Below, one piece after another: positions 18,186 to 61,128 of a DNA stretch of 64,000 nt. Within the stretch, counting starts at the first letter, position 1; every line of letters starts with the position of its first letter. The notes beneath the pieces were generated by a model that did not search any database, had not been told where the DNA came from, and saw only the letters and a list, made by a program, of their open reading frames with translations. The DNA comes from an uncultured Chitinophagales bacterium (GTDB lineage Bacteria > Bacteroidota > Ignavibacteria > UBA10030 > UBA6906). The translations under genes and the position numbers were made by a program. Where the stretch lies: contig CAZIHJ010000001.1 of assembly GCA_964538485.1 (NCBI GenBank), forward strand, positions 13,899-77,898, written 5' to 3'.

Positions 18186-19274
18186 GTGTCCGAGCTTCGA
18201 TTAATGAAAGGAAATGAGGCACTTGCCGAGGCCGCAATCCGCGCGGGATGTCAGGCGTATTTCGGTTATCCCATCACGCCGCAGTCGGAGATTCTTGAGT
18301 ACCTGACGGACGAGGGGCGTAAACGGGGGATGGTCGTTCTTCAAGCGGAGAGCGAAGTTGCCTCGATTAACATGGTGTATGGAGCAGCTGGAGCGGGAGC
18401 CAGGACGATGACGTCGTCATCAAGTCCGGGAATCAGCTTGATGCAGGAAGGTCTCTCGTATATCGCCTGTGCCGAGCTGCCCTGCCTTGTGGTCAATGTC
18501 AATCGCGGAGGTCCAGGCCTTGGGACAATTCAACCTTCGCAGGGTGATTACTTCCAGTCCACTAAAGGAGGCGGTCACGGGGATTACCGCCTGATCGTCC
18601 TTGCGCCGGCAAGCGTTCAGGAGATGGCGGACTTTGTCTATGATGCGTTTGATCTTGCAGACAAGTACCGGACTCCAGTGTTGATTCTCGCTGATGGTGC
18701 ACTGGGACAGATGATGGAGAAGGTGGAGTTCAAGGAATACAATCCGGCGGAACATATCCCGTCAAAACCATGGGCAACGGTTGGCAAGCCCAAGTCACGT
18801 GAGCGCAATATCATCACGTCGCTTCATATTCAGCCTGAAAAAATGGAGCAAATGAATATCCAGCTCCAGGCGAAGTACAAGGAGATCTCGGAACAAGAGG
18901 TCCGCTTTGAGGAGATTCAGACCGAGGATGCCGACTGTTTCATCGTCGCTTACGGGTTGGCTGCGCGGATCGCACATCGCGCAGTGGAGCAGGCACGCGA
19001 ATTGGGTATTCGTGTCGGATTGTTGCGACCGATAACGCTGTGGCCGTTCCCCCAAGCAAAGATCCGCGAACTTGCGGACAAGACCCACGGGGTGTTGGTG
19101 GTCGAAATGAATGCAGGACAAATGGTGGAAGACGTCCGACTCAGCGTTGAAGGAAGAGTGCCGGTCCGGTTTTGCGGAAGAATGGGTGGTGTTGTACCAT
19201 CGGCCGAGGAGATTGTGGCTGCTCTTGAAGCGTTGGACTATGAAGTCGCCAAGGATCATATCGGAGAATACTGA
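18186..19274 (+). CDS. 2-oxoacid:ferredoxin oxidoreductase alpha subunit
   Basis: GNEALAEAAIRAGCQAYFGYPITPQSEI is the POR/KOR alpha N-terminal signature. Start is GTG at 18186 (GGGG RBS) or ATG at 18204. Confidence 0.85.
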   Translation: MSELRLMKGNEALAEAAIRAGCQAYFGYPITPQSEILEYLTDEGRKRGMVVLQAESEVASINMVYGAAGAGARTMTSSSSPGISLMQEGLSYIACAELPCLVVNVNRGGPGLGTIQPSQGDYFQSTKGGGHGDYRLIVLAPASVQEMADFVYDAFDLADKYRTPVLILADGALGQMMEKVEFKEYNPAEHIPSKPWATVGKPKSRERNIITSLHIQPEKMEQMNIQLQAKYKEISEQEVRFEEIQTEDADCFIVAYGLAARIAHRAVEQARELGIRVGLLRPITLWPFPQAKIRELADKTHGVLVVEMNAGQMVEDVRLSVEGRVPVRFCGRMGGVVPSAEEIVAALEALDYEVAKDHIGEY

Positions 19275-19275
19275 C

Positions 19276-20052
19276 ATGGACGCACATGCTTCACAGAATA
19301 TCAATGAGACATTGGAGTGTGTATATGAACGACCGGACACACTCACCGATACGAGGATGCACTATTGCCCCGGATGTGGTCATGGTTCTGCTCATCGACT
19401 GCTGATGGAGGTTGTTGATGAGTTGGGCATTCAGGAGCAGACGATTGGCGTTGCACCTGTTGGATGTTCAGTATTTGCCTATCAGTACATGAACATTGAT
19501 ATGCAGGAAGCAGCACATGGAAGGGCGTCAGCCGTGGCAACCGGCATCAAACGCATTCATCCTGACAAGTACGTGTTCTCATATCAGGGAGATGGTGACC
19601 TCGCCGCAATCGGTACTGCAGAGACCATTCATACTGCAAACCGCGGCGAAAACATCCTTGTCGTGTTTATCAACAACGGTATTTATGGCATGACCGGTGG
19701 TCAGATGGCCCCCACAACATTGCTCGGAATGAAGACGACGACAAGTCCAGCCGGCCGTACTACTGATACGGCGGGTTTTCCGCTCAAGATCAGCGATATG
19801 ATCGCAATGTTGCCCGGTGTGTACTACGTGAGCAGGCATTCTGTGCACACACCGAATGCTGTCCGGCAGTTAAAGAAAGCGCTTACGAAGTCGTTCCAAT
19901 TTCAAAAGGAGAAGAAGGGAACATGCTTCATAGAAGTTGTCTCCAATTGTCCCTCCGGTTGGAAGATGACCCCTCCGCAGGCAAACAAATGGATGGAGGA
20001 GAATATGTTCCCGATGTATCCCCCGGGCGAATTGAAAGCGCCCAAGCCATGA
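19276..20052 (+). CDS. 2-oxoacid:ferredoxin oxidoreductase beta subunit (TPP-binding)
   Basis: Trimmed to the ATG at 19276, which lies 1 nt after the alpha-subunit stop. HYCPGCGHG and GDGD...IFINNGIYGMTGGQ form a TPP-binding motif. Confidence 0.85.
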   Translation: MDAHASQNINETLECVYERPDTLTDTRMHYCPGCGHGSAHRLLMEVVDELGIQEQTIGVAPVGCSVFAYQYMNIDMQEAAHGRASAVATGIKRIHPDKYVFSYQGDGDLAAIGTAETIHTANRGENILVVFINNGIYGMTGGQMAPTTLLGMKTTTSPAGRTTDTAGFPLKISDMIAMLPGVYYVSRHSVHTPNAVRQLKKALTKSFQFQKEKKGTCFIEVVSNCPSGWKMTPPQANKWMEENMFPMYPPGELKAPKP

Positions 20053-29935: not shown

Positions 29936-32338
29936 TTGTTCCACCACTTTCGTATTGGAGACTGTTTGCTCTCATATGTGCAAGAAAAAAGCTGCGGTGA
30001 GTTTGATATAGACCAGGAATGCGGGACGAAGAGGAAGAAGATCAATGTTGCGGGAATTGTCGCTCTGTGTATTCTGGCGACAACGTATGCTTCTCCCGTT
30101 GAAGCACAGGTGACGTTGGCTGGTCAGGTGGTTGATGAAGAGACGCACCAACCGATTGAGAATGTGAGTGTTCTGCTCCTGGAAACAGGGCGCCGGAAAT
30201 ACACGAATACACAAGGACGCTTCGCGTTCGAGAATCTTGCCGCCGGCCAGTACGCAGTAGCAGTGCATCACATTGGCTACGCCGACGTTGAGTGTATGGT
30301 CGTCGTTCGGGAGAAGATCGACAGCATCATTATCCTCCTGCGCTCCTCCATCAACCAATCCGCTGAAGTACTCGTCCGGGGAACGCGTGCACTTTCATCA
30401 TTGAAAAAGTCCTCCTTTCCCATCGATGTTTTAATGAGTGATCGCCTTACTCAGCACTCCCCAACATCAGTCTCTGATGCGCTCAAGAATATTCCGGGGC
30501 TTTCCCTCGTCCGTGACGGCGTTTGGGCCACAACGGTTTCCATCCGCGGGATGGGCCGTTCAAATATCGTTACTCTCGTGGACAACACCAGAATCGAAAC
30601 TTCCAATGATATTGCGGGCGGACTCTCGCTGCTCAATGTTCAGGATATTGAGAGAGTGGAGACGATGAAATCTCCCGGATCGGTCCTTTTTGGATCCGGA
30701 GCCCTTGGAGGTGCGGTTCATGTGATGATGAAACGGCCGTCGTTCAGCGACCAGCCCGGAATGGCCGTCGAAGTATCCGGGGGGTTCACGAGTGTCGATA
30801 ACGGGCTCTCCCAATATCTTGCCATTGAGTCCTCGACTGATCAATACGCCGTCAGACTGAGTGGAGGATATCGACGAGCCGGGAACACCATGACGCCTGA
30901 TGGGATGCTTCTGAATTCACAGTATCGTGATTTCAGTCTGTCAGATGCGCTGGCTGTAAAGACACTTGGTGAACAATCGCTGCTTCTGAACTACCAGCGG
31001 TCGCAAGCCGAGGACACCGGTCTTCCCGGTGGATCGCCAATTTCACCAACAGCGAACGCCAGGTACACACTCGCACGACGTGAACGATTCGGGTTGGAGT
31101 ATATCCTGCCGAATATGTCGCCGGGGACTCCGCTTCTCACGTTCAGACTTTCCCGACAGACGATTACCCGTAATGTTGAGATCATTCAGAATCCGGTGTT
31201 GACTATAACACCGCATGCGGTACATACCACCATATCCGGCCAGATTGAATCCCAAGTTCTCCCCGACGTCAATGACCGCCTCACGGTCGGCATTGAGCTC
31301 TGGCGCAGGGAACTGGATAGCCAGCGTGAGAGAATCGATCGGAGCAACGGTCAAATCACAGGTGAGCGCCCTGTGCCGTTGTCCACCAATCTTAATGCGG
31401 GAGTGTATGCGCAGAACGAATGGCGTAGCTCCTCCGACAACATGGTGATAATGTTGGGAGCTCGCTATGATCGAGCCCGTGTCGCCAATGATGAGACAAT
31501 GAATCCCGCCTATGTTGTTGCCGGTGGAATTCTGCAGACCGCACCGTCCGACCAGAAACTGTTGTGGAAGAAATCAACCGCACACGATGAGTCGTGGAGC
31601 ATGAATGCCGGCCTCCAGTACGCCGTCAGTCCATTGGTTGATGCATCGCTGCTGGTCGCAACGGCATTCCGGTCGCCTTCACTCGAAGAGCGCTTTCAGT
31701 TCATTGATCTCGGGAACACCGTTCGCATCGGAGATCCAACCCTGCAACCTGAACGAAGCCTCTGCATCAACACCGGAGTGGGCTTGCACACGCAAGCCCT
31801 GAAAATCCGCACAGACATGTTCTGGACCCGGCTCTCGAATCTCATCACAGAAATTCCCGGAGTATACGAGGGTCGACCGGCGTACGTGAAAACGAATATT
31901 GGAACAGCCAGTGTGTACGGGTGTGAGATCTCGACCGAACTCGCTCTGACAACATATATTGTTTTGAAGTCGTCGGCTGCCTACGTGCGGGGCCGCGACA
32001 CTCGTAATCATACTGATCTTCCGCAGATTCCACCCATGAACGGCCGTGTGGAAGTTAACGGCCACTTCGAGTCTCTGGGAAATCTGCATATCGCGTGGTC
32101 GGGCGCGGTGACGCAGAATAGTCTTGCTCCTGCCGAGCAGCGCACACCGGGCTATGCGGTTATAGATGTGGATATCGCGAGTAGGCCGCTGACGATCGGA
32201 CCATTGTCGCTCATCGTCCGATCCGGGATACAGAATGTTTTCAATCGGGCGTACAGGAATCATCTCTCCACCCTTCGAGATGTCATCAAGTCCGAGCCGG
32301 GTAGGAATTTCTTTTTGTGTGCGAAGGTCGTCCTATGA
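29936..32338 (+). CDS. TonB-dependent outer-membrane receptor with N-terminal carboxypeptidase-regulatory-like domain
   Basis: A CarbopepD_reg-like beta-sandwich (VTLAGQVVDEETHQPIENVSVLLLETGRRKYTNTQGRFAF), a plug region (PGLSLVRDG...IRGMG), and a long barrel with a C-terminal aromatic-rich strand. The exact start is uncertain: the open frame has no internal ATG before the signal peptide. Confidence 0.8.
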   Translation: MFHHFRIGDCLLSYVQEKSCGEFDIDQECGTKRKKINVAGIVALCILATTYASPVEAQVTLAGQVVDEETHQPIENVSVLLLETGRRKYTNTQGRFAFENLAAGQYAVAVHHIGYADVECMVVVREKIDSIIILLRSSINQSAEVLVRGTRALSSLKKSSFPIDVLMSDRLTQHSPTSVSDALKNIPGLSLVRDGVWATTVSIRGMGRSNIVTLVDNTRIETSNDIAGGLSLLNVQDIERVETMKSPGSVLFGSGALGGAVHVMMKRPSFSDQPGMAVEVSGGFTSVDNGLSQYLAIESSTDQYAVRLSGGYRRAGNTMTPDGMLLNSQYRDFSLSDALAVKTLGEQSLLLNYQRSQAEDTGLPGGSPISPTANARYTLARRERFGLEYILPNMSPGTPLLTFRLSRQTITRNVEIIQNPVLTITPHAVHTTISGQIESQVLPDVNDRLTVGIELWRRELDSQRERIDRSNGQITGERPVPLSTNLNAGVYAQNEWRSSSDNMVIMLGARYDRARVANDETMNPAYVVAGGILQTAPSDQKLLWKKSTAHDESWSMNAGLQYAVSPLVDASLLVATAFRSPSLEERFQFIDLGNTVRIGDPTLQPERSLCINTGVGLHTQALKIRTDMFWTRLSNLITEIPGVYEGRPAYVKTNIGTASVYGCEISTELALTTYIVLKSSAAYVRGRDTRNHTDLPQIPPMNGRVEVNGHFESLGNLHIAWSGAVTQNSLAPAEQRTPGYAVIDVDIASRPLTIGPLSLIVRSGIQNVFNRAYRNHLSTLRDVIKSEPGRNFFLCAKVVL

Positions 32339-33243
32339 ACCTCTTTGGAGAATACGGTTCGGCGACATGGCTTGTGCTGGCTTTATGTTCCGCATTGTTC
32401 TCAGCCGGAGCAGCAGTGACCCAAAAGAGGGTGCTGTTCCGCGTAAACGCATTAGAGTTCTCGTTTCTCCTTTCGTTCATCATTATGGTTTTTTCCACGT
32501 TCATTCCTTTGTCGGTTGATGTTATGGCAATTTCAGCGCCCACCGCGTTGATCATCCTGGGCAAGAGTCTCTTGGGAGGGATGGCCTTCCTCTTTGTGAT
32601 GAAGGCGCTCGAGCGCAACCAAATCAGTACTGCGCTTCCGTTGTTGGGATTGACTCCGGCAGTGGCGGCTCTCTTCGCGATGTTCATCCTCGGAGAAATG
32701 CTTCAGGGCTTGGAATGGGTTGGCGTCGCCTTGATGATGATTGGAGTATACATGTTGGAAAAACGTCCGGTTGAACAAACGCCTGATGTGCACGCAAGAG
32801 CCGGTGCTCCAATACAGCACCGGTACATTCTCGGAGCGGTGGGGTTGTTTGGCGTGTCGTCCGTATTCGATAAGATGCTCGTTGGCACTTTAACGATCGA
32901 TGCGCGCGTTGTGCTGTTCTACCAGCACATCGTATACTGGTTTCTGTTTGGAGCGATGCTGTTGGTGCGGCGCTCACCGTTCACCGATGTCGTCCGAAAA
33001 GGGCGCGAGCTGCTTCCGCTCCTTGTTCTCGTGGCCGTACTTACCATCGTATATCGTTTCACACAACTTGAAGCCATGAAACTCGCGCCGGTTGCGATGG
33101 TTCTCGCAGTGAAACGCACATCTATTCTCTTTGCCTCATTCTTTGGCGGCAAGCTATTCTCGGATGACAGGCTCGGTATAAGATTGGCCGGGGCGGCACT
33201 CATTGTTGCCGCAGGGTTTCTCATTCTCAGAAATGTTGCATGA
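32335..33243 (+). CDS. EamA/DMT-superfamily transporter (10 TM)
   Basis: Two EamA-like halves; ATGA overlap with the upstream stop. Trimmed to the ATG at 32335. Confidence 0.7.
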   Translation: MNLFGEYGSATWLVLALCSALFSAGAAVTQKRVLFRVNALEFSFLLSFIIMVFSTFIPLSVDVMAISAPTALIILGKSLLGGMAFLFVMKALERNQISTALPLLGLTPAVAALFAMFILGEMLQGLEWVGVALMMIGVYMLEKRPVEQTPDVHARAGAPIQHRYILGAVGLFGVSSVFDKMLVGTLTIDARVVLFYQHIVYWFLFGAMLLVRRSPFTDVVRKGRELLPLLVLVAVLTIVYRFTQLEAMKLAPVAMVLAVKRTSILFASFFGGKLFSDDRLGIRLAGAALIVAAGFLILRNVA

Positions 33244-33271: not shown

Positions 33272-33793
33272 ATGAACGGAACACACACACTTTCACGTGA
33301 ACTGCAGGAAATTGATCTCATCGTGACCAAATGCAAAGGAAGGCAGGGGGAATTGCTGACCATTCTTGAGCAGACACAGCTTCTCAATGAACAGAAGTAC
33401 CTTTCAGAGGAGGCTCTGAACCGTGTTGCTCTCAGGACAGGAGTGCCTCTTTCCCGGATCTATAATGTCGTTACGTTCTATTCATTCTTCAGTCTCAAAC
33501 CTCAGGGCAAGCACACACTCACTGTGTGTCGTGGAACCGCATGTCACACTAAGGGGTCGCGGGCCCTTCTGAACGATCTTGGACTGATTCTCGGCTGCAA
33601 CAAGGCGTTGTCGGACGGAGAATCAACCTTCACGACACCGGATAACCAGTTTACCATTTCCACAGTGGCATGTTTCGGTCAATGCGCTCTTGCTCCGGTC
33701 GTTGGCATTGATGGGATCATTCATAGCAACATGACGACGGCGAAGGTACAAAGGTTGGTGCAAAGGATCACCAAGCGGAGGATCAAGACATGA
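33272..33793 (+). CDS. NuoE/HoxE/HydC-like thioredoxin-fold [2Fe-2S] subunit
   Basis: CRGTACHTKG ... VACFGQCALAPV is the NuoE-type C-x4-C...C-x3-C [2Fe-2S] motif. Confidence 0.8.
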   Translation: MNGTHTLSRELQEIDLIVTKCKGRQGELLTILEQTQLLNEQKYLSEEALNRVALRTGVPLSRIYNVVTFYSFFSLKPQGKHTLTVCRGTACHTKGSRALLNDLGLILGCNKALSDGESTFTTPDNQFTISTVACFGQCALAPVVGIDGIIHSNMTTAKVQRLVQRITKRRIKT

Positions 33794-36700
33794 AGATCCA
33801 CGACGTAACAACGCTGAACGATATCCGTCAAAAGGGCCTCAAGAAACTGTTCCCTGATGTGCCAAAAATCTCGGTGGGCATGGGAACCTGTGGCCTCGGC
33901 AATGGCGCCCAGGATGTGCTCAAACGACTGCAGGATGTAATCAAAGAGAAGAAAGCAAGGATCCAGCTTTCCTCCGTGGGGTGCTTCGGCTTCTGTGCGG
34001 AGGAGACCCTTGTCAATTGCTACATACCCGGACAGCCGCTGGTCATTCTCCACAGAGTCACGCCGGGAGATGCCACCAATATTGTTGAGAGTCTCTCGAG
34101 AGGATTGATGCCGTTGCGGAAAGCGCTCTGCAAGATTGAGCAATGGGACTTCTGCACCTCTAAGATTGAGTTTGGAAAGGGAATTGGCAGCGTTCCCGTG
34201 TGGAACGAGCTTCCGTTCTTCAAAGGGCAGAAGAAGATCGTTCTCCGCGACGCGGGGTTGATCAACCCTGAAGACATCGAGGAGTACATCGCCGTCGGCG
34301 GGTACAGTGCATTGTTCAAGGCCCTGACACACATGACGCCGGAGATGGTGCTTGATGAGATCAAGAAATCGAAACTCCGTGGACGCGGGGGAGCAGGATT
34401 TCCTGTCGGCGTAAAGTGGGAAATGATGAAAAGCGCTCAGGCAGACAAGAAGTACATAATCTGCAATGCTGACGAGGGCGATCCCGGCGCGTACATGAAT
34501 CGTAATGAAATCGAAAGTGACCCCCACGCCCTCCTCGAGGGAATGCTCATCGGTGCCTATGTGATGGGAACCTCTGAAGGTGTCATGTATGTGCGAGCCG
34601 AGTATCCACTTGCAGTTCAACGTTTCACGAAGGCCATGGCTGCTGCCCGGGAGTACGGCATTCTCGGACAGAATATTCTCGGTTCATCATTCAACTTCCA
34701 AATCTCTCATGTTGAAGGAGCTGGCGCCTTCGTCTGCGGTGAAGAGACTGCACTTATCGCTTCTATTGAGGGAAGAGCAGGTCGTCCGATTCCACGGCCA
34801 CCCTACCCTGCCCAAAAAGGGCTCTGGGGAAAACCGACAAATATCAACAACGTTGAGACATGGATAAATATTCCTGTCATCGTGACGATTGGCGGGAACG
34901 AATTTGCAAAATTCGGAACACAGACCAGCACCGGCACAAAGGTGTTTTCCCTTGTTGGTAAGATCAAGAACACCGGATTGGTCGAGCTGCCTCTCGGCAC
35001 TCTGTTGCAGGATATTATCTATCAGATGGGTGAGGGAACCGGTAACAGGAAGAGGATCCGGGCAGTCCAGACTGGCGGCCCGTCGGGAGGATGTATTCCG
35101 GTTGAACATTTCAACACACCTGTCGACTATGAATCCCTCACCAAGCTGGGCACAATCATGGGCTCCGGGGGCATGGTGGTGATGGATCAGGACAATTGCA
35201 TGGTGGATGTTGCACGGTACTTTGTCGAAGTGACGTACAACGAGTCCTGCGGCAAGTGTACGCCCTGTCGTGAAGGGCTGGCACAATCTCTGGCCATCCT
35301 TAATAAGATCACGCGTGGTGAAGCAACCATGCATGATCTTGACACGCTTGAACGGTTGTCGTACGTGATCAGGGATTCATCACTCTGCGGCTTGGGACAA
35401 ACGAGTTCGAATCCTGTTTTGAGTACGTTGCGGTATTTTCGTGATGAGTATGAACGACATATCATCCAGCGGCGATGCAAGGCGGGAGTATGTGAGAACC
35501 TGTTCGTTGCCCTCTGCGAAAACAGTTGTCCGCTGCATATGAATATTCCCGGGTACCTCCAACTGTTGAAGGAAGTCCGACTTGAAGAGGCGTTTGAGCT
35601 CACGCTCAGAGATAATCCGTTGCCCGGTACGGTCGGAAGAATTTGCTACTTCCATTGTCAGGTTCGTTGCCGGCGTGATATGGTCGACGATCCGGTTTCC
35701 CAGGGGGAAATCCATCGCTATCTGGCTGACACCATGTATAAGATGGGGAAGGAGAAAGAAATCTATCAGCGGCTGATAAAAGAGAAACTCTCACCCACCC
35801 AAAAGAACATTGCCATCATTGGCGCGGGCCCCGCAGGACTGACAGCCGCCTATTACCTCGTCCGTCTCGGGCACAATGTAACGGTCTATGACAGCCACGC
35901 GAAGGCCGGTGGTATTCTGCAATACGGAATCCCCGCGTATCGTCTGCCAAAGGACGTGCTCAACAAAGAGCTTGAGCTCTTCAGGAAACTTGGTGTCACG
36001 TTCATCTTTAATACGCATATCGGGAAGGAAATTTCCCTGAAGGCCCTCCAGAAACAGAATGACGCAGTCTTCCTTGCGGTCGGGGCTCAGAAAGACATCG
36101 AGCTTGATATCGAGGGGAAGGACCTCGATGGCGTGCTGCAGGGCTACGAGTTCCTCGAACACCTTGGGGCGGGAGAGAAGCTCCAGATAGGCCAAAAGGT
36201 AGTGGTCATCGGAGCAGGCAACGTGGCAATCGATGCAGCCCGGTCGTGTGTGCGCCTCGGCGCTGACGTGACAATTGTCTACCGTCGCGACAGGGACGAA
36301 GTACCTGCCAACGAGCATGAAGTAAAGGACGCGATCGACGAGAATATCAGGTTCATGTTTATGTCCGCTCCACACCGGATCATTGGTGATGCAAAGGGGA
36401 GGGTGAAAGGTCTTGAAATCCGAAAGATGAAGTTCGACGGTTTCGACAACACCGGGCGGAAAAAACCTGTCGATACAGGAGAATCCGACATCATTGAGTG
36501 CACCAGAGTCATAGTTGCCATCGGAGAGAAGGTTGATTTTGAACCCGCAAAGGAGGTCGGGCTTGAACTCCGAAAGAACGGCACAGTGAAAGTGCATCCT
36601 CCGGCATACCGGACCAACCTGCCAAAGGTGTATGCCGGCGGTGACGCGGTGACGGGACCCGCAACGGTCGCCGAAGCCATGGGGATTGCCCGCCAGGCCT

Positions 36701-36951
36701 CAGAGGCAATCGACTTCGACCTGATGAATGAGAAACGCTTCCATCGACTCTTCAGAGAATTCCAATACAAAGACGAGGTGGTGCTGGAACCGGAAGTAAA
36801 TAAAAAAGTGGATCCACAGAGAATACCGATCAGAGAGAGAATCCACAGTTTTCAGGAGGTTTTGTCCGGATACTCCGGTGAAGAAGCAATGCAGGAAGCT
36901 CTCCGGTGCCTTCGCTGCGATGTCAAATGCCAGGAACACGAGGATAGCTAG
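33790..36951 (+). CDS. NuoF-like NAD(H)/FMN/[4Fe-4S] subunit fused to a C-terminal GltD/NfnB-like FAD/NAD(P)H oxidoreductase (1053 aa)
   Basis: N-terminal half has GRGGAGFPVGVKWE (the NuoF FMN/NADH motif), a SLBB domain, and the NuoF C-terminal cluster CGKCTPCREG. Residues ~610-1050 read IAIIGAGPAGLTAAYYL...VVVIGAGNVAIDAAR...VYAGGD, two Rossmann dinucleotide motifs typical of the glutamate-synthase small subunit or NfnB. Preceded by Cys clusters (CENSCPLHMNIPGY). Confidence 0.85.
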   Translation: MKIHDVTTLNDIRQKGLKKLFPDVPKISVGMGTCGLGNGAQDVLKRLQDVIKEKKARIQLSSVGCFGFCAEETLVNCYIPGQPLVILHRVTPGDATNIVESLSRGLMPLRKALCKIEQWDFCTSKIEFGKGIGSVPVWNELPFFKGQKKIVLRDAGLINPEDIEEYIAVGGYSALFKALTHMTPEMVLDEIKKSKLRGRGGAGFPVGVKWEMMKSAQADKKYIICNADEGDPGAYMNRNEIESDPHALLEGMLIGAYVMGTSEGVMYVRAEYPLAVQRFTKAMAAAREYGILGQNILGSSFNFQISHVEGAGAFVCGEETALIASIEGRAGRPIPRPPYPAQKGLWGKPTNINNVETWINIPVIVTIGGNEFAKFGTQTSTGTKVFSLVGKIKNTGLVELPLGTLLQDIIYQMGEGTGNRKRIRAVQTGGPSGGCIPVEHFNTPVDYESLTKLGTIMGSGGMVVMDQDNCMVDVARYFVEVTYNESCGKCTPCREGLAQSLAILNKITRGEATMHDLDTLERLSYVIRDSSLCGLGQTSSNPVLSTLRYFRDEYERHIIQRRCKAGVCENLFVALCENSCPLHMNIPGYLQLLKEVRLEEAFELTLRDNPLPGTVGRICYFHCQVRCRRDMVDDPVSQGEIHRYLADTMYKMGKEKEIYQRLIKEKLSPTQKNIAIIGAGPAGLTAAYYLVRLGHNVTVYDSHAKAGGILQYGIPAYRLPKDVLNKELELFRKLGVTFIFNTHIGKEISLKALQKQNDAVFLAVGAQKDIELDIEGKDLDGVLQGYEFLEHLGAGEKLQIGQKVVVIGAGNVAIDAARSCVRLGADVTIVYRRDRDEVPANEHEVKDAIDENIRFMFMSAPHRIIGDAKGRVKGLEIRKMKFDGFDNTGRKKPVDTGESDIIECTRVIVAIGEKVDFEPAKEVGLELRKNGTVKVHPPAYRTNLPKVYAGGDAVTGPATVAEAMGIARQASEAIDFDLMNEKRFHRLFREFQYKDEVVLEPEVNKKVDPQRIPIRERIHSFQEVLSGYSGEEAMQEALRCLRCDVKCQEHEDS

Positions 36952-36960
36952 AGGACACAA

Positions 36961-38790
36961 ATGGAAAATACGATGGTCAATATAAAAATTGATGGTGTAC
37001 AGTACCAGGTGAAGCAGAGCGTGACAATACTGGACGCGTGCAGGTTTACCGGGATCAAAGTACCAACCCTCTGCTTTCTTGAAGACGTTTCCAGGAATGC
37101 TTCATGCGCGATGTGTGTAGTGGAGGTGAAGGGTGCCCGTTCTCTCGTGCGCTCCTGCGTTACGTGTGTTTATGAGGGGATGGAGATAGCGACGACGTCG
37201 TCACGCATCAGAGAAACGAGAAAAACAAACCTTGAACTTTTGCTTGCCAATCATCCGAAAGAGTGTCTTTCCTGCCTGCGCAATAAGAACTGCGAACTGC
37301 AGACTCTTGCAGCCGATCTTGGTGTAAAGGAGGATCAGTTTGCGCGATCCAAAGAGGTCAGTGCAATGGACGAGACTTCTCCGTCAATCACAAGAGATCC
37401 GAACAAGTGCATACTCTGTGGCAGATGCATTGCGGTATGTCAGAATGTTCAAACAGTTTCGGCAATCGGCCTTTCCGGGCGGGGGGTCAAGACAAAGATT
37501 TCGACCTACTTTGAGAAAGGCCTTGGCCATGTTGCCTGTACATACTGCGGTCAGTGTGCGTTGGTCTGTCCTACCGGGGCAATTGTTGAACACGATGATA
37601 CGGACATCGTCTTCGAAGAGATCGGCAATCCGGAGAAGGTCGTGATCGTCCAAACCGCTCCGGCGATCCGAGTCGGAATCGGTGAAGCGATGGGGATGGG
37701 ATCGGGCATGCTCGTCACGGGCCAGATGGTCGCCGGTTTACGACGCCTCGGTTTTAACAAAGTCTTTGACACGCAGTTCGCGGCAGACCTGACTATCATT
37801 GAAGAGGGACATGAGTTGATCAACCGCATAACGAACAATGGTGTCCTGCCCATGGTTACCTCCTGTTCACCCGGATGGATAAAATTCGCAGAGCATTTCT
37901 TCCCTCATGCACTCGGACATCTCTCAACGTGCAAGTCTCCACAGCAGATGTTTGGATCAATAGCAAAGACGTACTACGCCGCGAAGATGGGAATCGATCC
38001 AAGAAAGATCGTCGTTGTTTCAATTATGCCGTGCACCGCAAAAAAATATGAGGCGAAGCGACCCGAGATGACCGGTGCGTTCAAGTACTGGAAAGAAAGG
38101 AGGGCATGGTCTGACGACGATATGTTTTATGATGTCGACTATGTACTGACGACGAGAGAACTTGCGAGGATGTTCAAGGAAACGGGAATTCAGTTTGCGC
38201 ATCTCCCTGCGGAGGAATTCGATAACCCGCTGGGTGAATCAACGGGAGCGGCTGCGATTTTTGGGGCGACAGGTGGCGTGATGGAGGCGGCTCTGAGGAC
38301 GGCGTATGAAGTGATGACTGGGAAATCATTGGAGAATCTCAATTTCGCTGCAGTGCGAGGGATGGAAGGAATCAAAGAAGCGGAAGTCGACATAGACGGC
38401 AGGAAGGTAAAGGTGGCCGTCGCCCACACATTGAAGAACGCGCGCAAACTTCTTGAGCAAATTGAGAAAGGGGAATCTCCGTACGCGTTTATCGAGATTA
38501 TGACATGTCCGGGTGGCTGCCTTGGTGGTGGCGGTCAGCCGATCCCGACCACATTGGAAATCCGGAAGTTGCGGGCGGAATCCATCTATGCGGAAGACGC
38601 AAGAAAACAGATCCGCAAATCACACGAGAACCCGGAGATTCAGATTCTCTACAAGGAATTTCTCAAGGAGCCGCTTGGAGAAATATCCCATCATCTTCTC
38701 CATACCTCATATAAGAAGCGCGGGCTTTTTGTTTGGAAGTCAGATGGTGACAAGCTTGAGGAGGCGGACGCGCTCGAAAGTAACCTGTGA
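36961..38790 (+). CDS. hydA: [FeFe]-hydrogenase catalytic subunit (M3-type: 2Fe-2S + 2x[4Fe-4S] + H-cluster domain)
   Basis: N-terminal NuoG-like [2Fe-2S] region, ferredoxin motifs CILCGRCIAVC and CTYCGQCALVCP, and H-cluster motifs L2 MPCTAKKYE and L3 EIMTCPGGCLGGGGQP. L1 reads TSCSPGW rather than the canonical TSCCPxW. Confidence 0.9.
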   Translation: MENTMVNIKIDGVQYQVKQSVTILDACRFTGIKVPTLCFLEDVSRNASCAMCVVEVKGARSLVRSCVTCVYEGMEIATTSSRIRETRKTNLELLLANHPKECLSCLRNKNCELQTLAADLGVKEDQFARSKEVSAMDETSPSITRDPNKCILCGRCIAVCQNVQTVSAIGLSGRGVKTKISTYFEKGLGHVACTYCGQCALVCPTGAIVEHDDTDIVFEEIGNPEKVVIVQTAPAIRVGIGEAMGMGSGMLVTGQMVAGLRRLGFNKVFDTQFAADLTIIEEGHELINRITNNGVLPMVTSCSPGWIKFAEHFFPHALGHLSTCKSPQQMFGSIAKTYYAAKMGIDPRKIVVVSIMPCTAKKYEAKRPEMTGAFKYWKERRAWSDDDMFYDVDYVLTTRELARMFKETGIQFAHLPAEEFDNPLGESTGAAAIFGATGGVMEAALRTAYEVMTGKSLENLNFAAVRGMEGIKEAEVDIDGRKVKVAVAHTLKNARKLLEQIEKGESPYAFIEIMTCPGGCLGGGGQPIPTTLEIRKLRAESIYAEDARKQIRKSHENPEIQILYKEFLKEPLGEISHHLLHTSYKKRGLFVWKSDGDKLEEADALESNL

Positions 38791-39033: not shown

Positions 39034-42000
39034 ATGGAACAAATCCCCAAACGTAAACACGTAACAATCGACGGAAACGAAGCAGCGGCTTACGTTGCCC
39101 ACAAACTCAACGAAGTTATTGCCATCTATCCGATCACGCCGTCGTCAAACATGGGCGAATGGGCAGATGAATGGTCGGCACAGGGCCGGAAGAACTTGTG
39201 GGGAACGGTCCCTTCGGTGACGGAGATGCAGAGTGAAGGTGGTGCAGCCGGAGCAGTTCATGGTGCCCTGCAAACAGGGGCTCTCTCCACGACGTTTACC
39301 GCTTCCCAGGGATTGCTCCTGATGATACCGAATATGTACAAGATTGCAGGCGAACTGACGTCAACAGTGTTTCATGTGTCCGCCCGTTCTCTCGCAACAC
39401 AGTCCCTCTCCATTTTCGGTGATCATAGCGACGTGATGGCCACACGAGGGACGGGGTTTGCAATGATGTGTTCAAACTCCGTGCAGGAAGTAATGGATTT
39501 TGCATTGATTGCCCAGGCAGCCACACTCGAAGCTCGCGTTCCGTTCCTTCATTTCTTCGACGGTTTCAGAACGTCCCATGAAGTCATGAAGATCGAACAA
39601 TTGAACGATGATGATATTCGCGCCATGATTGATGATGAATTGATTCACGCGCACCGTTCACGCGGTCTTTCTCCCGACCGTCCGGTGATGCGGGGAACAG
39701 CGATGAATCCCGACGTTTATTTCCAGGCACGCGAAACCGTGAACCCGTTCTATGCAGCGTGTCCGGCCATTGTGCAAAAGGCAATGGATAAGTTCGCAAA
39801 GGTTGTTGGACGTCAGTATCAATTGTTTGAGTATTTCGGTTCGCCCAACGCAGAGCGTGTCATTGTGATTATGGGTTCCGGAACCGGTGCCGTTGAGGAG
39901 ACGATCTCACATCTCAACAGCAAAGGCGAGAATGTTGGCGTCTTGAAAGTACGATTATTTCGGCCATTCTCAATTGCAGCATTTGTTCAAGCACTCCCGA
40001 AATCCGTCAAGACCATCGCCGTCCTCGACAGAACGAAGGAGCCCGGAGGCGCGGGCGAGCCGTTGTATCAGGATGTTGTGACCGCAATCGCCGAACGGCA
40101 CAGTTCCGGAACGCTTCCCTTTGTATTCCCAAGAATCATCGGCGGACGGTATGGACTTTCTTCCAAGGAATTTACGCCTGCGATGGTCAAAGGCGTCTAC
40201 GATGAGATGAAGAAGACCCCCCCGAAGAACCATTTCACCGTCGGCATCAATGACGACGTCACGCATACAAGTCTCGAGTATGATGCGGATTTTACCACGG
40301 AGCCCGACGATGTCGTACGGGCAATGTTCTATGGCCTTGGTGCTGATGGTACAGTTGGAGCGAACAAGAACTCCATCAAGATCATCGGAGAGGATACTGA
40401 TTTCTTTGCCCAGGGATATTTCGTTTACGACTCAAAGAAGTCAGGCTCAACAACGATTTCACATCTCCGTTTCGGTCCGCGTCCCATCAAATCAAACTAT
40501 CTGATTGAAAGAGCCAACTTCATCGCGTGCCATCAATGGTTCTTCCTTGAAAAATTTGATGTGTTGAAGAATGCAGTTCCGGGGGCAACTTTTCTTCTTA
40601 ACAGTTACTTCGGCCCGGACAAAGTGTGGGATGAACTACCACGCCAAATCCAGGAACAGATCATACGGAAGAAGATCAAGTTCTATGTGATTGATGGCTA
40701 CAAGGTTGCCCAGGCAACCGGTATGGGTGGTCGCGTGAATACTATTATGCAGACATGTTTCTTTGCCATCTCCGGCGTACTTCCGCGTGAACAGGCGATT
40801 GATGCGATCAAGAATTCAATCAAGAAAACATACGGGAAGAAGGGCGACCAGATCGTACAGCAAAACTTTGACGCCGTGGATCAGACTATTGCCAACCTTT
40901 TTGAAGTGACAATACCTGAACTGGTGACGAGCACTCTGGAGATGCCGTCCGCGGTTTCGTCGAAAGCGCCGGAGTTTGTTCGCAATGTCACTGGCGTAAT
41001 CATCGCCGGCATGGGTGATTCGCTTCCGGTCAGCGCGATGCCGATTGACGGGACGTTCCCGGTCGGGACAGCCCAATGGGAAAAGCGCAACATAGCTCTT
41101 GAAATTCCCGTCTGGGACACACAGGTTTGCATACAATGCAACAAGTGTGCGATTGTTTGTCCGCATGCAACCATCCGCATAAAGGTATATGATCCCAAGG
41201 AGTTAGCGGGCGCGCCGTCCACGTTCAAGTCAACTGACTACCGCGGCCCCGAATACAAGGGGATGAAATATTCGATTCAAGTTGCCCCCGAAGATTGTAC
41301 GGGATGCGGCATCTGTATAGAGATTTGCCCCGCCAAGAACAAATCGGAGACACGACTCAAGGCAATCAACATGATGCCGCAACCGGCTATCCGCGACCAG
41401 GAGAGAGAGAACTACGAGTTCTTCCTCAACCTTCCCGAGGTGGATCGGCGCGGAGTGAAAATGGATTCGGTGAAGGGGTCGCAGTTGCTTCAACCGTTAT
41501 TTGAATACTCCGGTGCGTGCTCGGGTTGCGGTGAGACGCCGTATCTCAAGTTGGTGACACAGTTGTTCGGCGATAGAATGCTTGTGGCAAATGCAACCGG
41601 CTGCTCATCCATCTATGGCGGCAACCTTCCGACCACACCGTGGACAAAGAACAATGACGGTCGGGGCCCGGCGTGGTCGAATTCACTCTTTGAGGACAAC
41701 GCTGAGTTCGGCATGGGTATGCGTCTCACTATCGACAAACACACAGAGATGGCGAAGGAGCTCGTGCAGGTCCTGGAACCGGTGATTGGAGCCGAGTTGG
41801 TGAATGCACTTCTCACAGCCAGCCAAGCTGATGAGGCCGGTATTTACGAACAGCGCCTGAGAGTTGAGGAGTTAAAGAAGAAACTGAAAATGATCACCTC
41901 TCCCGAAGCAAAGCAACTCGCGACTCTCGCCGACAGCCTTGTGAAGAAGAGTGTGTGGATTGTTGGTGGTGATGGCTGGGCGTATGATATCGGCTTTGGC

Positions 42001-42633
42001 GGACTTGACCATGTGCTCGCCTCGGGAAAGAACGTGAACATTCTCGTGCTCGACACGGAAGTGTACTCCAACACCGGCGGCCAGATGTCCAAGTCCACGC
42101 CACGTGGCGCGGTAGCGAAGTTTGCAGCGGGCGGCAAGCCGCGCGCGAAGAAGGACCTCGGCCAGATCGCAATGACCTACGGTAATGTCTACGTTGCAAC
42201 GGTGGCCATGGGTGCGAACGACATGCAAACCATCAAAGCATTCCTTGAAGCGGAAGCATACGATGGCCCGTCACTTATCATCGCATACAGTCATTGCATT
42301 GCACACGGCATTAACATGGAAAAGGGGATGGGCAACCAGAAAGCCGCGGTGGAAAGTGGCCATTGGCCGCTGTACCGCTACAACCCGACGCAGGACGCCA
42401 ATGGGAAGAACCCGTTCAAACTCGACTCCAAGGCCGCGAAGATCAAGTTCTCTGACTACGCCTATCTTGAGACGCGTTACAAAATGCTGACAAAGAGCGA
42501 TCCTGAAGCGGCGAAAAAACTGATGGAACTTGCACAGGAAGATGTCAACAAGCGATGGGAAATCCTTGAAGAGATGGCAAGGGATGGGAATGGAACCGCG
42601 CAAACGATTGTTCCACCGGTGCAGCATAACTAG
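39034..42633 (+). CDS. nifJ: Pyruvate:ferredoxin (flavodoxin) oxidoreductase, single-polypeptide NifJ/PFOR type
   Basis: 1199 aa; N-terminus VTIDGNEAAAYVAHKLNEVIAIYPITPSS; internal ferredoxin motifs CIQCNKCAIVCPHA and CTGCGICIEICP; a TPP-binding C-terminal domain (GGDGWAYDIGFGG). Confidence 0.95.
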   Translation: MEQIPKRKHVTIDGNEAAAYVAHKLNEVIAIYPITPSSNMGEWADEWSAQGRKNLWGTVPSVTEMQSEGGAAGAVHGALQTGALSTTFTASQGLLLMIPNMYKIAGELTSTVFHVSARSLATQSLSIFGDHSDVMATRGTGFAMMCSNSVQEVMDFALIAQAATLEARVPFLHFFDGFRTSHEVMKIEQLNDDDIRAMIDDELIHAHRSRGLSPDRPVMRGTAMNPDVYFQARETVNPFYAACPAIVQKAMDKFAKVVGRQYQLFEYFGSPNAERVIVIMGSGTGAVEETISHLNSKGENVGVLKVRLFRPFSIAAFVQALPKSVKTIAVLDRTKEPGGAGEPLYQDVVTAIAERHSSGTLPFVFPRIIGGRYGLSSKEFTPAMVKGVYDEMKKTPPKNHFTVGINDDVTHTSLEYDADFTTEPDDVVRAMFYGLGADGTVGANKNSIKIIGEDTDFFAQGYFVYDSKKSGSTTISHLRFGPRPIKSNYLIERANFIACHQWFFLEKFDVLKNAVPGATFLLNSYFGPDKVWDELPRQIQEQIIRKKIKFYVIDGYKVAQATGMGGRVNTIMQTCFFAISGVLPREQAIDAIKNSIKKTYGKKGDQIVQQNFDAVDQTIANLFEVTIPELVTSTLEMPSAVSSKAPEFVRNVTGVIIAGMGDSLPVSAMPIDGTFPVGTAQWEKRNIALEIPVWDTQVCIQCNKCAIVCPHATIRIKVYDPKELAGAPSTFKSTDYRGPEYKGMKYSIQVAPEDCTGCGICIEICPAKNKSETRLKAINMMPQPAIRDQERENYEFFLNLPEVDRRGVKMDSVKGSQLLQPLFEYSGACSGCGETPYLKLVTQLFGDRMLVANATGCSSIYGGNLPTTPWTKNNDGRGPAWSNSLFEDNAEFGMGMRLTIDKHTEMAKELVQVLEPVIGAELVNALLTASQADEAGIYEQRLRVEELKKKLKMITSPEAKQLATLADSLVKKSVWIVGGDGWAYDIGFGGLDHVLASGKNVNILVLDTEVYSNTGGQMSKSTPRGAVAKFAAGGKPRAKKDLGQIAMTYGNVYVATVAMGANDMQTIKAFLEAEAYDGPSLIIAYSHCIAHGINMEKGMGNQKAAVESGHWPLYRYNPTQDANGKNPFKLDSKAAKIKFSDYAYLETRYKMLTKSDPEAAKKLMELAQEDVNKRWEILEEMARDGNGTAQTIVPPVQHN

Positions 42634-45632: not shown

Positions 45633-47939
45633 ATGGTACGTAAACAAGAAGCACTCGACTATCATTCGGTGGGACGCAAGGGAAAGATTGAAGTCGTCTC
45701 ATCAAAACCGTGTCAGACACAAAGAGACCTCTCGCTTGCCTACACACCCGGCGTGGCAGAGCCGTGCAGGGAGATAGAAAAGAACCCCGATGATGCGTAC
45801 CTCTATACGGCGAAGGGGAATCTCGTTGCGGTGATCTCCAACGGGACGGCGGTTCTCGGACTTGGCGACATTGGAGCGCTGGCCGGTAAACCGGTGATGG
45901 AAGGGAAGGGAGTGCTGTTCAAAAGATTTGCTGACATCGATGTGTTTGACATCGAAATGAATTCGCACAATCCGGACGACATCATCAAAGCAGTGCAGAT
46001 GCTCGAGCCGACGTTCGGGGGTATTAATCTCGAAGACATCAAAGCCCCCGATTGTTTCTATATCGAAGAAACGTTGAAGAAAACCATGAACATCCCGGTC
46101 TTCCACGATGACCAGCATGGTACGGCCATCATCAGCGGTGCTGCCTTGCTGAATGCAGTCGAAATTGTCGGAAAGCAACTCAACCAGGTGAAGGTGGTGT
46201 TCAGCGGGGCTGGTGCTGCAGGGATTGCCTGCGCGAAGTTATACGAGAAACTCGGGGTGAAGCGCGAGAATATGTTGCTCGTTGACACCAAGGGGGTCGT
46301 GTTCAAAGGCCGGACTTCGGGGATGAATCCCTACAAGGAGTACTTTGCTGCCGAGACGAATGCCCGTTCACTGGCTGATGCCATGAGAGGTGCTGACGTC
46401 TTCTGTGGTGTATCGGTGAAGGACATCGTTACCAAGGATATGATCAAGTCCATGGCCGATAATCCGATCGTGTTCGCAATGGCGAACCCTGATCCGGAGA
46501 TCACGTATGATGATGCCATCAGCGTCCGCAAAGACCTCATCATGGCGACGGGACGGTCTGACTACCCGAACCAGGTGAATAACGTCCTTGGCTTCCCGTT
46601 CATCTTCCGTGGTGCACTCGACGTTCGTGCATCGACAATTAATGACGAAATGAAGATGGCGGCTTCGTATGCGCTGGCGAAACTCGCGAAAGAGGACGTG
46701 CCTGATTCCGTTATGCGCGCATACGGCGGAAAGAGGATTGAATTCGGGAGAGACTACATCATCCCGAAGCCCTTTGACCCACGCGTTATGCTTTGGGAAA
46801 CAGTGGCCGTGGCGAAGGCGGCAATGGACACAGGGGTAGCGCGCATGCCGATCACGGACTTTGAGGCGTACAAGGATTCGCTTGAGGCACGTCTCGGCAA
46901 GTCTCACGAAGTCATGCGCTTCTTCGTTCATAAGGCACAGAAATCGCCGAGAAGGATTGTGTTCCCGGAAGGCGAAGAAGAAAAGATTCTCCGCGCTGCA
47001 CAGATCATTGTCGGGGAAGGCATCGGCCAGCCGATATTGCTTGGAGGCCGTACACTCATCACTCAACGGATCAAAGACCTAGGGCTCGATCTGGAGGGTG
47101 TGGAGATCATCAATCCATCGAAGTCGCCAAAGTTCGACGAGTACGTCACTGCCTACTACGCGATGCGGCAACGGAAAGGCGTGACGCGATTCGATGCAGA
47201 ACGGCAGATGGCGACACACAATATTTTCGGTATGATGATGGTGCAACGGGGTGATGCGGACGGCTTGATCTCCGGCCTCACACAGCACTATCCTGCCACA
47301 GTGCGTCCCGCGATACAGATTATCGGTACACGGGAGGGTGTGAGGAAGGTTGCCGGGTTGTATATGATGATCTTCAAGAACCGGACGATCTTCATTGCCG
47401 ATGCGACGGTCAACATTGAACCAACGGCGGAGGATCTGGCAGAGATTGCTTTGTTAACTGCCGAGAAGGTGAAACAATTCAATATCGTGCCGAAGATCGC
47501 CATGCTTTCCTTCGGGAGTTTTGGCGGAACGAATCATCCGCTGGCCGCGAAAGTGCAGAAGGCCCTGAGTATGGTAAAAGAACGGGCACCGCACCTTGCC
47601 ATCGATGGTGAAATGCAGGCGGATGCGGCAGTGTCCCCCGAAATTCTTGCTGAACTCTACCCGTTCAGTCCACTGCAGGGAGGGGCGAATGTTCTCATTT
47701 GTCCGGACCTGACTTCGGCGAACATCGCGTACAAATTACTGAAGTGTCTCAGCGATGCAGTGGCTGTCGGACCGATCCTGATGGGGATAAAGAAACCGGT
47801 ATATCTCCTTGTGCCGGGAAATGATGTGAACGATATCGTCAATATTACTGCGATGGCTGTTTGTGAATCGCAGCGATTGCGAGAGGAGAAGCTGGAGGCG
47901 AAGGAGCACACATTCGAGCTTCCTGTCCATGCGGAATAA
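45633..47939 (+). CDS. maeB: NADP-dependent malic enzyme (MaeB-type: malic enzyme + PTA-like C-terminal domain)
   Basis: N-terminus [26 protein letters not shown], and a C-terminal phosphotransacetylase-like domain (~330 aa). Confidence 0.9.
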
Positions 47940-56991: not shown

Positions 56992-57003
56992 GGTAGTTCT
57001 CCT

Positions 57004-58052: not shown

Positions 58053-58191
58053 CCCCTTATTTCTCACAACTGAGAACCTCCACCCATGATTGAGATGCAA
58101 TTTCAGCGTTTTCATTGCTTTCTACCTCGGCATGTGCTTTGAATCTATGAAGGGTGTTGATTTGACAATACAACGGTTGATCTATCAGGTG

Positions 58192-61116: not shown

Positions 61117-61128
61117 CTTGATGCGTGA

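Follow-up and report, generated by a model that had tools for sequence, protein, structure and literature searches.

Electron-bifurcating hydrogenases of the HydABC type are the main route by which fermenters carry electrons from NADH to H2. To our knowledge, ferredoxin is the low-potential partner in all characterized members of the Bfu family, and it acts through the B3/B4 domain. Here we describe a three-gene [FeFe]-hydrogenase locus, hydC-fusion-hydA, in which the HydB subunit is joined to a flavoprotein module related to the small subunit of glutamate synthase (GltD). The locus lies within a stretch of 64,000 nucleotides (the window; positions 13,899 to 77,898 of contig CAZIHJ010000001.1, assembly GCA_964538485.1) from an uncultured Chitinophagales bacterium assigned by GTDB to the Ignavibacteria; coordinates given below are those of the window.

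Several described systems resemble parts of this locus. In bifurcating B subunits the B3/B4 domain is the ferredoxin site, its B4 cluster is needed for bifurcation in Nfn-Bfu enzymes, and a histidine in the preceding hinge is regarded as a hallmark that is missing in non-bifurcating homologs (PMC12018979); non-bifurcating HydB homologs are also without the B2-B5 sites (PMC9304861). The Nfn-Bfu and Stn enzymes (NfnABC of Caldicellulosiruptor saccharolyticus and Thermococcus sibiricus, StnABC of Sporomusa ovata) contain an NADPH module inserted in BfuA, on the mid-potential arm, while their B subunit keeps B3/B4; in these enzymes NADPH feeds in at the module, which does not bifurcate and is connected by way of its two clusters (PMC10482914). 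NfnAB (NfnSL) has a module with flavin adenine dinucleotide (FAD), NADPH and two [4Fe-4S] sites in its large subunit, and its bifurcation needs NfnA/S, the bearer of a [2Fe-2S] cluster and a second FAD. Among [FeFe]-hydrogenases, group A2 of HydDB ('glutamate synthase-linked') likewise links a GltD-like flavoprotein to a group A HydA, and is defined by a GltD-like neighbor 'but not NuoF'. For the group F hybrid [FeFe]/[NiFe] hydrogenase of the archaeal Thermoplasmatota UBA147 (Greening et al. 2024, PMC11216029), a HydB with a glutamate-synthase-like domain was reported, which was modeled on a NuoF-like chain and the small-chain structure 7MFM_I within a HydABC-related complex. In the open-access papers searched, we found no other HydB with such a domain, and no description of a bacterial HydB-GltD fusion hydrogenase. 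A census of the Bfu family picked B subunits by a ferredoxin-type 4Fe-4S InterPro domain (Schut et al. 2022; PMC9304861), so that fusion proteins of the kind described here would have been excluded; neither that paper nor one of its supplementary files mentions them.

We report that the GltD-like module replaces the ferredoxin-like B3/B4 domain of HydB directly after the hinge, rather than being a mere appendage. On the strength of domain and ligand comparisons, we are highly confident that the locus encodes a heterotrimeric Bfu/HydABC-type [FeFe]-hydrogenase with a domain-swapped HydB, and NADP(H) is very probably one of its substrates. Much more tentatively, we predict the reaction 2 H2 + NAD+ + NADP+ <-> NADH + NADPH + 2 H+.

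Results

A continuous hydB-gltD frame in a tight operon

The first gene, hydC (33272-33793, + strand), encodes a BfuC/NuoE-like protein of 173 aa (Pfam PF01257, 2Fe-2S_thioredx, E 3e-37). Its stop overlaps the start of the fusion gene in the sequence ATGA. The fusion (33790-36951, + strand) is a single open reading frame (ORF) of 1053 aa plus stop, followed after 9 nt by hydA (36961-38790, + strand; 609 aa), which encodes the catalytic subunit of an M3-type [FeFe]-hydrogenase and whose start is preceded by AGGA. The three genes form a tight operon on the + strand, and the order proposed in the original prediction, a NuoE-like gene, a 1053-aa NuoF-GltD fusion and an M3 HydA, holds by coordinates and Pfam calls alike. 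A scan of the operon for promoters and terminators gave counts no better than those of shuffled sequences.

Along the fusion, Pfam detects in the predicted order Complex1_51K (residues 191-362, E 9e-43), SLBB (386-434), NADH_4Fe-4S (473-557), Fer4_20 (565-652; PF14691, E 1e-21) and Pyr_redox_2 (673-965, E 3e-35). The NuoF-type and GltD-type domains abut at residues 557/565, and the 1053-codon frame contains zero internal stops. In the protein database, more than 100 entries of 1044-1062 aa match over 99-100% of the fusion at 61-84% identity, and full-length homologs that keep the cofactor ligands number more than 115 (45-84% identity). A search of public assemblies for an identical copy of the protein had no match. 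Conservation of ligands was assessed in an alignment of 116 fusion sequences, and that of His642 (see below) over 68 homologs; the junction residues are invariant. A frameshift, a stop or a misassembly that joins two genes, hydB and gltD, is ruled out by the continuous frame and by more than 115 independent full-length orthologs from many assemblies, as is a C-terminal half translated separately as a gltD homolog. No break is found near ~35.5 kb, where the original prediction had considered one. Its expectation that the NuoF-like subunit of known HydABC enzymes measures ~600 aa agrees with the solved HydB/BfuB chains, which span 584-630 aa. The fusion reaches the cut-off of no NCBIfam model, its homologs carry the database names 'NADH-quinone oxidoreductase subunit F' or 'FAD-dependent oxidoreductase', and no solved structure in the PDB holds both halves together in one chain.

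The N-terminal half is a bifurcating-type HydB up to and including the hinge

Residues 23-572 of the fusion align end to end with all solved bifurcating Bfu B subunits. The best-scoring relatives of this half are NiFe-HydB of A. mobile (7t2r_B, 653 bits) and NfnB of T. sibiricus (9n5u_B, 648 bits), followed by NfnB of C. saccharolyticus (615 bits), StnB of S. ovata (596 bits) and the HydB subunits of Acetobacterium woodii (7q4v_B, 573 bits), Thermoanaerobacter kivui (546 bits) and Thermotoga maritima (531 bits). At the N-terminus (33790-34239, + strand), a thioredoxin-like domain with the 'B5' site is recognizable from alignments to 9n5u_B, 9bov_B and 8oh5_B. Of its cysteines, C34, C65 and C69 never vary and C114 is kept in 114 of the 116 sequences, the first motif of the domain being a single Cys, as in the B subunits of Nfn-Bfu and Stn enzymes.

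The NuoF/BfuB core follows (residues 151-572; 34240-35505, + strand), as delimited by Pfam and the PDB matches. Its loops for flavin mononucleotide (FMN) and NAD(H), GRGGAGFP (198-205), CNADEGDPGA (225-234) and GAGAFVCGEETAL (310-322), and the ligands of the B1 [4Fe-4S] cluster, C487, C490, C493 and C533, are identical to those of five solved BfuB subunits and invariant among the homologs. The core closes with the 'B2' zinc/hinge site (residues 557-568; 35458-35493, + strand), in which H557-x5-C563-x4-C568 together with C470 form a putative zinc hinge. All four residues are invariant, and they match H524, C529, C534 and C437 of T. sibiricus NfnB (PMC12018979). The fusion has therefore retained both the B2 and the B5 site typical of bifurcating members. 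The accompanying HydC provides the BfuC subunit, with C86, C91, C134 and C138 as ligands of the C1 [2Fe-2S] cluster, and hence a C1-bearing BfuC and a BfuB core with FMN/NAD(H) loops and B1 are both present.

A permuted NADPH module stands in place of the B3/B4 domain

Every alignment to BfuB structures stops just past the hinge, at residue 572. In canonical B subunits a ferredoxin-like domain comes next, whose two CX2CX2CX3CP motifs bind B3 and B4. The CX2CX2CX3CP motif occurs nowhere in the fusion, the protein has no Pfam Fer4-type match, and the C-terminal ferredoxin-like B3/B4 domain, a defining feature of the Bfu family, is accordingly absent. As judged from these alignments, the hinge is the last element common to HydB, and the swap begins right behind it. 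What was envisaged in the original prediction as an Nfn/GltD-type module grafted onto HydB is indeed joined to a complete FMN/NAD(H) core, but it substitutes for the B3/B4 domain.

In the sequence position of the missing domain lies an Fe-S domain of the Fer4_20 family (PF14691; 35506-35769, + strand), which is the most conserved region of the fusion, with 86% mean identity. The FAD and NADP(H) domains follow (Pyr_redox_2; residues 661-990; 35770-36759, + strand); in the PDB they score highest against the NADPH modules of 9bov_A, 9n5u_A and 8oh5_C. The two Rossmann motifs that had been noticed in this half are GAGPAG (678-683) for FAD, accompanied by R718, the counterpart of StnC R239 (in 115 of 116 sequences), and GAGNVA (808-813) for NADP(H), accompanied by the invariant Y831-R832-R833. 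In NfnB this YRR motif contacts the 2'-phosphate, and it distinguishes relatives that use NADP(H) from those that use NAD(H) (PMC7596348). Seven cysteines are available for two [4Fe-4S] clusters (C576, C580, C619, C623, C627, C1040 and C1043), and they are invariant or nearly so, C1043 being found in 115 of 116 sequences. The last two belong to a C-terminal tail (residues 1003-1053; 36796-36948, + strand) that ends in R-C1040-L-R-C1043 and gives these ligands to the Fe-S domain.

Comparison of residues 573-1045 with the PDB places the module closest to the NADPH modules of C. saccharolyticus NfnA (its residues 104-567; 361 bits), T. sibiricus NfnA (346 bits) and S. ovata StnC (328 bits), ahead of P. 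furiosus NfnL (323 bits) and T. maritima NfnB (295 bits); glutamate synthase small subunits score 198 bits or less. A profile of the tail matches the N-terminal residues of stand-alone proteins, namely 5-42 of T. maritima NfnB (4ylf_B, E 1.5e-9), 15-47 of NfnL (5jca_L, E 3e-9) and 14-53 of GltD (6s6s_G, E 1e-4), so the module is circularly permuted. It also matches residues 536-568 of NfnA/StnC (9bov_A/8oh5_C), and the permutation and a C-x3-C-x3-C-RR motif are common to the fusion module and the Nfn-Bfu/Stn insertion. This shared organization points to common ancestry and to transfer of the module between Bfu A and B subunits, and disfavors an independent capture of gltD or nfnB. The original description of the module as GltD/NfnB-like is thus right as to FAD, the YRR motif and the Pfam domains; its type is the permuted one of Nfn-Bfu/Stn and not that of stand-alone NfnB or GltD.

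One ligand sets the module apart. StnC K170 is an unusual ligand of the FAD-proximal cluster, strictly conserved and essential in Stn/Nfn-Bfu enzymes and replaced by Glu in NfnB/NfnL. The residue aligned with it in the fusion is His642 (35713-35715), which is invariant in 68 homologs. Lys occupies the position in a hydrogenase-linked clade that is 45% identical to the fusion (P0123), and Glu in some degenerate relatives.

HydA belongs with the bifurcating hydrogenases

Pfam resolves HydA into Fer2_4, NADH-G_4Fe-4S_3, two 4Fe-4S domains, Fe_hyd_lg_C (E 6e-99) and Fe_hyd_SSU, which is the M3 architecture, with sites for a [2Fe-2S] cluster, a His-ligated [4Fe-4S] cluster, two further [4Fe-4S] clusters and the H-cluster. 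All three H-cluster motifs are present: TSCSPGW (L1), MPCTAKK and EIMTCPGGCLGGGGQP. Its best PDB matches are the bifurcating HydA1 subunits of A. woodii (635 bits) and T. kivui (616 bits), compared with 484 bits for CpI, and it scores 874.9 bits against NCBIfam NF040763 ('NADH-dependent [FeFe] hydrogenase, group A6'; cut-off 765). The L1 motif has Ser for the second Cys of TSCCP, a change that is kept in 79 related loci. The genome paper on I. album noted such a Cys-to-Ser change for the L1 motif of T. tengcongensis HydA and for that of one HydA from I. album itself, and proposed that it biases the enzyme towards H2 oxidation.

The three-gene unit is widespread

Related loci were collected by scanning one genome per species; 80 full-length loci were examined, and tblastn confirmed 356 stretches in all as related. 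The fusion is present in at least 80 species genomes from at least five phyla, its carriers belonging to Ignavibacteriota, Bacteroidota (Paludibacter, Bacteroidales bacterium CF, Microbacter and others), Spirochaetota, FCPU426 and Kryptoniota, besides one metagenome-assembled genome (MAG) labeled Acidobacteriota. A cultured carrier is represented by the Paludibacter genome GCA_001618385.1. The NuoF-GltD hydrogenase architecture is hence widespread and not rare. Loci that are ~80% identical to that in the window carry the labels Synechococcus sp., Acidobacteriota or Chitinophagaceae MAGs (L033, L074 and L017/L022/L026/L027); these odd labels are probably binning or labeling errors, and the phylum count should be read with caution for that reason.

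Wherever the flank suffices in the 80 loci, the fusion is directly preceded by a hydC homolog and directly followed by a hydA homolog; the few exceptions are all contigs that end too early. The same hydC-fusion-hydA unit recurs in the 45%-identical P0123, in a different genomic background. That orthologous fusions always neighbor hydA, a check suggested in the original prediction, holds for the examined loci with enough flank, but not for a 55%-identical relative whose BfuA is free of an H-cluster (see Discussion). No conserved redox partner and no conserved ferredoxin gene were found in the flanks of the 80 loci. Pyruvate:ferredoxin oxidoreductase (PFOR; 39034-42633, + strand; 1199 aa; TIGR02176, 1899 bits) does stand immediately downstream in this genome, as originally stated, behind an AT-rich gap of 243 nt, but it adjoins the operon in none of the 80 related loci and is rejected as a functional partner by conserved synteny. 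Its adjacency is peculiar to this genome and uninformative on the enzyme family. Upstream of the operon (29936-33243) lie genes for a TonB-dependent receptor and an EamA transporter, which are kept in 27 and 23 related loci, respectively, all of the closest clade; they are the only recurrent neighbors and have no evident functional tie to the hydrogenase.

Discussion

Comparison with described systems

The locus has the three subunits of the FeFe-Bfu enzymes HydABC of T. maritima, A. woodii and T. kivui, including a C1-bearing HydC and a HydB core with FMN/NAD(H) loops, B1, the B5-site domain and the His/Cys hinge. Unlike them, its B subunit is without the B3/B4 ferredoxin site and has instead a FAD/NADP(H) module of ~480 aa with two differently folded [4Fe-4S] clusters, so that it measures 1053 rather than 584-630 aa. 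Because the B3/B4 ferredoxin-like domain is missing, we would call the enzyme a variant that descends from the Bfu family rather than a strict member. In HydDB terms, a co-oriented NuoF-like gene adjoins hydA here and in the 80 loci, and with GltD fused to a full NuoF/HydB and HydC present, the enzyme is filed under A3 (bifurcating) and not under A2.

The closest solved relatives of the C-terminal half are the modules of the Nfn-Bfu and Stn enzymes, which share with it the permutation, the C-x3-C-x3-C-RR motif and YRR, and whose B subunits are likewise near to the N-terminal half. In the fusion, however, the module sits on BfuB and replaces B3/B4; their BfuA has no H-cluster, whereas the BfuA here is a true hydrogenase, and His642 takes the place of their Lys170. 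NfnAB/NfnSL resembles the fusion in its large subunit, which has the FAD/NADPH/2x[4Fe-4S] module and YRR, but this subunit is unpermuted and has Glu on the proximal cluster, and no gene for an NfnA/S-like partner is found in the operon or its conserved flanks. The archaeal hybrid hydrogenase differs in having five subunits, among them a fused HydA-HyhS, HyhL and HydD; its domain was read only as a probable ferredoxin site, with no discussion of NADP(H), and we liken it to the fusion by its published description. A glutamate synthase linkage of the group A2 kind is rejected: no GltB-like gene occurs among the scanned ORFs of the 64-kb window or in the flanks of the 80 loci, the module is of Nfn-Bfu type, and GltD structures are far weaker matches (198 versus 361 bits).

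A model for electron transfer

What would a HydB without its ferredoxin arm do? Coupling of H2 to both NADH and NADPH is probably the most economical reading. The mobile [2Fe-2S] cluster C1 of HydC would pass electrons to the two [4Fe-4S] clusters of the module, which would sit where B3/B4 normally take low-potential electrons from C1. The module clusters begin a few residues past the hinge that ordinarily bears B3/B4. FAD/NADP(H), and not ferredoxin, would thereby become the terminus of the low-potential arm, with H2 on the mid-potential BfuA arm, NAD(H) at FMN on the high-potential side and NADP(H) as the low-potential partner. In fermenters, the enzyme would act as an NADH+NADPH-confurcating H2 producer. 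This reading draws on the closeness of the module to the Nfn-Bfu/Stn NADPH modules, on the invariant YRR and ligands, on the absence of a B3/B4 motif, on the self-contained hydC-fusion-hydA unit in 80 genomes and on the grouping of HydA with bifurcating HydA1.

The energetics can be estimated from the physiological potentials of the NAD and NADP couples (~-280 mV and ~-380 mV, respectively; PMC9304861). By our computation, the potential of H+/H2 lies between the two couples from ~3 Pa to ~7 kPa H2, and a 1:1 confurcation of NADH and NADPH would produce H2 up to ~145 Pa, compared with ~3 Pa for NADH alone. This thermodynamic range fits the architecture of the arms and the habitats of the carriers.

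Alternative readings

Ferredoxin may not have been lost as a substrate. In a four-substrate enzyme, it would dock on the Fer4_20 domain, against the C-terminal domain of HydC, the core would remain an NADH+ferredoxin-confurcating hydrogenase, and FAD/NADP(H) would be an extra tap, a built-in Nfn-like or ferredoxin:NADP+ reductase that balances H2 and NADPH. Ferredoxin is believed to bind close to the homologous NfnAB domain's distal [4Fe-4S] (PMC5861303), and the archaeal hybrid hydrogenase was interpreted along the same lines, its authors having guessed that the glutamate-synthase-like domain in HydB has ferredoxin for a partner (PMC11216029). Several docking surfaces would agree with the high conservation of the Fer4_20 domain, HydA has its best matches in the ferredoxin-dependent HydA1, and PFOR and a second 2-oxoacid:ferredoxin oxidoreductase are encoded within the window. 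We nevertheless consider this arrangement unlikely: in the absence of gating, an FAD/NADP+ site wired to the low-potential clusters would be apt to short-circuit bifurcation, the protein has lost the canonical ferredoxin-like fold with its motifs, and neither PFOR adjacency nor a ferredoxin gene is conserved across the 80 loci. Still less probable is a hydrogenase without coupling, in which FMN/NADH and FAD/NADPH would be independent entries to one Fe-S wire and the H-cluster, either pool being vented as H2 at low H2 pressure or both being reduced from H2. GltD-type modules are normally plain converters between NADPH and one-electron carriers, the FAD of StnC does not bifurcate, NADPH alone can drive H2 to ~7 kPa so that this half needs no coupling, and non-bifurcating NADH-dependent HydAB(C) enzymes are known (PMC7311640). 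Against such an enzyme stands that the B2-B5 sites are what non-bifurcating HydB homologs are without (PMC9304861), and that here the His/Cys hinge, with H557 as the described hallmark of bifurcation (PMC12018979), the B5 cysteines and HydC are all retained and invariant.

We regard as highly improbable a reaction of the Nfn type with protons in the place of ferredoxin, 2 NADPH + NAD+ + H+ <-> 2 NADP+ + NADH + H2. NADPH would then be the mid-potential donor, NAD+ the high-potential and H+/H2 the low-potential acceptor, with the arm roles of the flavobicluster swapped. Such a role would agree with the module type, all characterized cases of which feed in NADPH at mid potential, and the 55%-identical fusion, whose BfuA has no catalytic domain, suggests that the A arm may exit to a low-potential carrier. 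Yet in all structures the low-potential exit is the very arm that bears the module here, and H2 lies below NADPH in potential only above ~7 kPa, so that coupling would rarely be needed. An artifactual join, or a C-terminal half that serves a glutamate synthase in a group A2-type association, has a negligible probability: nothing beyond the unusual length of the protein suggests it, and it conflicts with the continuous frame, the more than 115 orthologs and the invariant junction.

The confurcation of NADH and NADPH to H2 has points to its discredit as well. With 100 mV between them, NAD and NADP offer little leverage compared with ferredoxin, and the Bfu flavobicluster may not bifurcate onto an acceptor of this kind. 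In this genome the adjoining PFOR hints at reduced ferredoxin that needs an outlet, and ferredoxin docks on the homologous Fe-S domain in NfnSL. The pairing of the 55%-identical fusion with an H-cluster-free BfuA shows that a B subunit fused in this way is not bound to a role in hydrogen chemistry. An AlphaFold2 (AF2) monomer of the fusion has confident domains (predicted local distance difference test, pLDDT, 82.7), but a predicted template modeling score (pTM) of 0.64 and low pLDDT at residues 564-579; with its inter-domain geometry uncertain, the model cannot place the module relative to HydC and was not used for the mechanism.

A wider family of NuoF-GltD fusions

Further NuoF-GltD fusions are found at 33-55% identity. 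The relative at 55% (L090:506-5697, GCA_030643555.1) is a cofactor-complete HydB::GltD fusion in a hydC-fusion operon, followed by a 132-aa protein with no Pfam match and then by a 403-aa protein without an H-cluster, in which a 170-aa N-terminal domain of unknown kind precedes NuoG-type [2Fe-2S]/[4Fe-4S] domains. The system is possibly a Bfu-like enzyme other than a hydrogenase, its B subunit handling NADPH. [quoted passage not shown] The P0155 gene, the one of this group whose context was looked at, comes directly after genes for a 705-aa molybdopterin oxidoreductase and a HycB-like four-cluster protein, and the locus looks like one for an NADPH-linked formate-dehydrogenase-type complex. Two orphan fusions (L089:312-3482, or P0129, and that on the P0137 contig), with degenerate FMN loops and Glu at the cluster-ligand position, stand beside a response regulator and a histidine kinase and may be redox-sensing or regulatory derivatives. 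Recurring in such diverse fusions, the junction of a hinge and a permuted GltD module thus appears to be an old, reused building block.

Other genes of the window

Some 7 kb downstream of the hydrogenase, beyond genes for PFK, a CoA-binding protein and a DHO_dh-like protein, the window encodes a malic enzyme fused to a phosphotransacetylase-like domain (45633-47939; MaeB type). MaeB is NADP-dependent in E. coli, and the fusion is a possible local source of NADPH. A two-subunit 2-oxoacid:ferredoxin oxidoreductase (18186-20052; POR_N/PFOR_II and TPP_enzyme_C) adds to PFOR, which makes at least two ferredoxin-reducing enzymes in the 64-kb stretch. Genes for multihaem c-type cytochromes, one of them fused to a cytochrome b561-like domain, for an NrfD/4Fe-4S pair and for two GcvH-like proteins lie in the regions 6484-8727, 54282-57726 and 58090-62691, flanked by sigma-54 two-component regulators; they indicate respiratory versatility beside a fermentative hydrogenase. 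No hydEFG, rnf or nfnA genes were seen among the window ORFs scanned with Pfam.

Relevance of the domain swap

What is exchanged for an NADPH flavoprotein module is exactly the B3/B4 domain, with the rest of the bifurcation core strictly conserved, and the replacement of the ferredoxin arm, as opposed to a plain addition, alters the mechanistic question that the fusion raises. It offers a ready-made test of models for the target of C1, the exchangeability of the low-potential arm and the role of the non-Cys ligand. It is conceivable, though we hold it to be doubtful, that this natural enzyme is the first of the Bfu bifurcating type to have a pyridine nucleotide at the end of its low-potential branch, and that it is ferredoxin-independent, with a His-ligated [4Fe-4S] cluster tuning the arm. 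If the predicted reaction is correct, it would constitute a new reaction class for flavin-based electron bifurcation, one that uses the ~100-mV gap between the two nucleotide pools, and a single enzyme for H2-driven regeneration of NADH and NADPH would be of interest for biocatalysis.

For the organisms, such an enzyme would mean a direct link between H2 and the NADPH pool, and a separate Nfn could be unneeded. Genes of this kind are now annotated as 'NuoF' or 'FAD-dependent oxidoreductase' and classed with the ordinary bifurcating hydrogenases. Were the prediction true, the H2 thresholds predicted for abundant lineages of peat, fen, sediment and digesters would be altered, and Bacteroidota, Ignavibacteriota and Spirochaetota of wetlands, sediments and guts would have a new route of H2 turnover.

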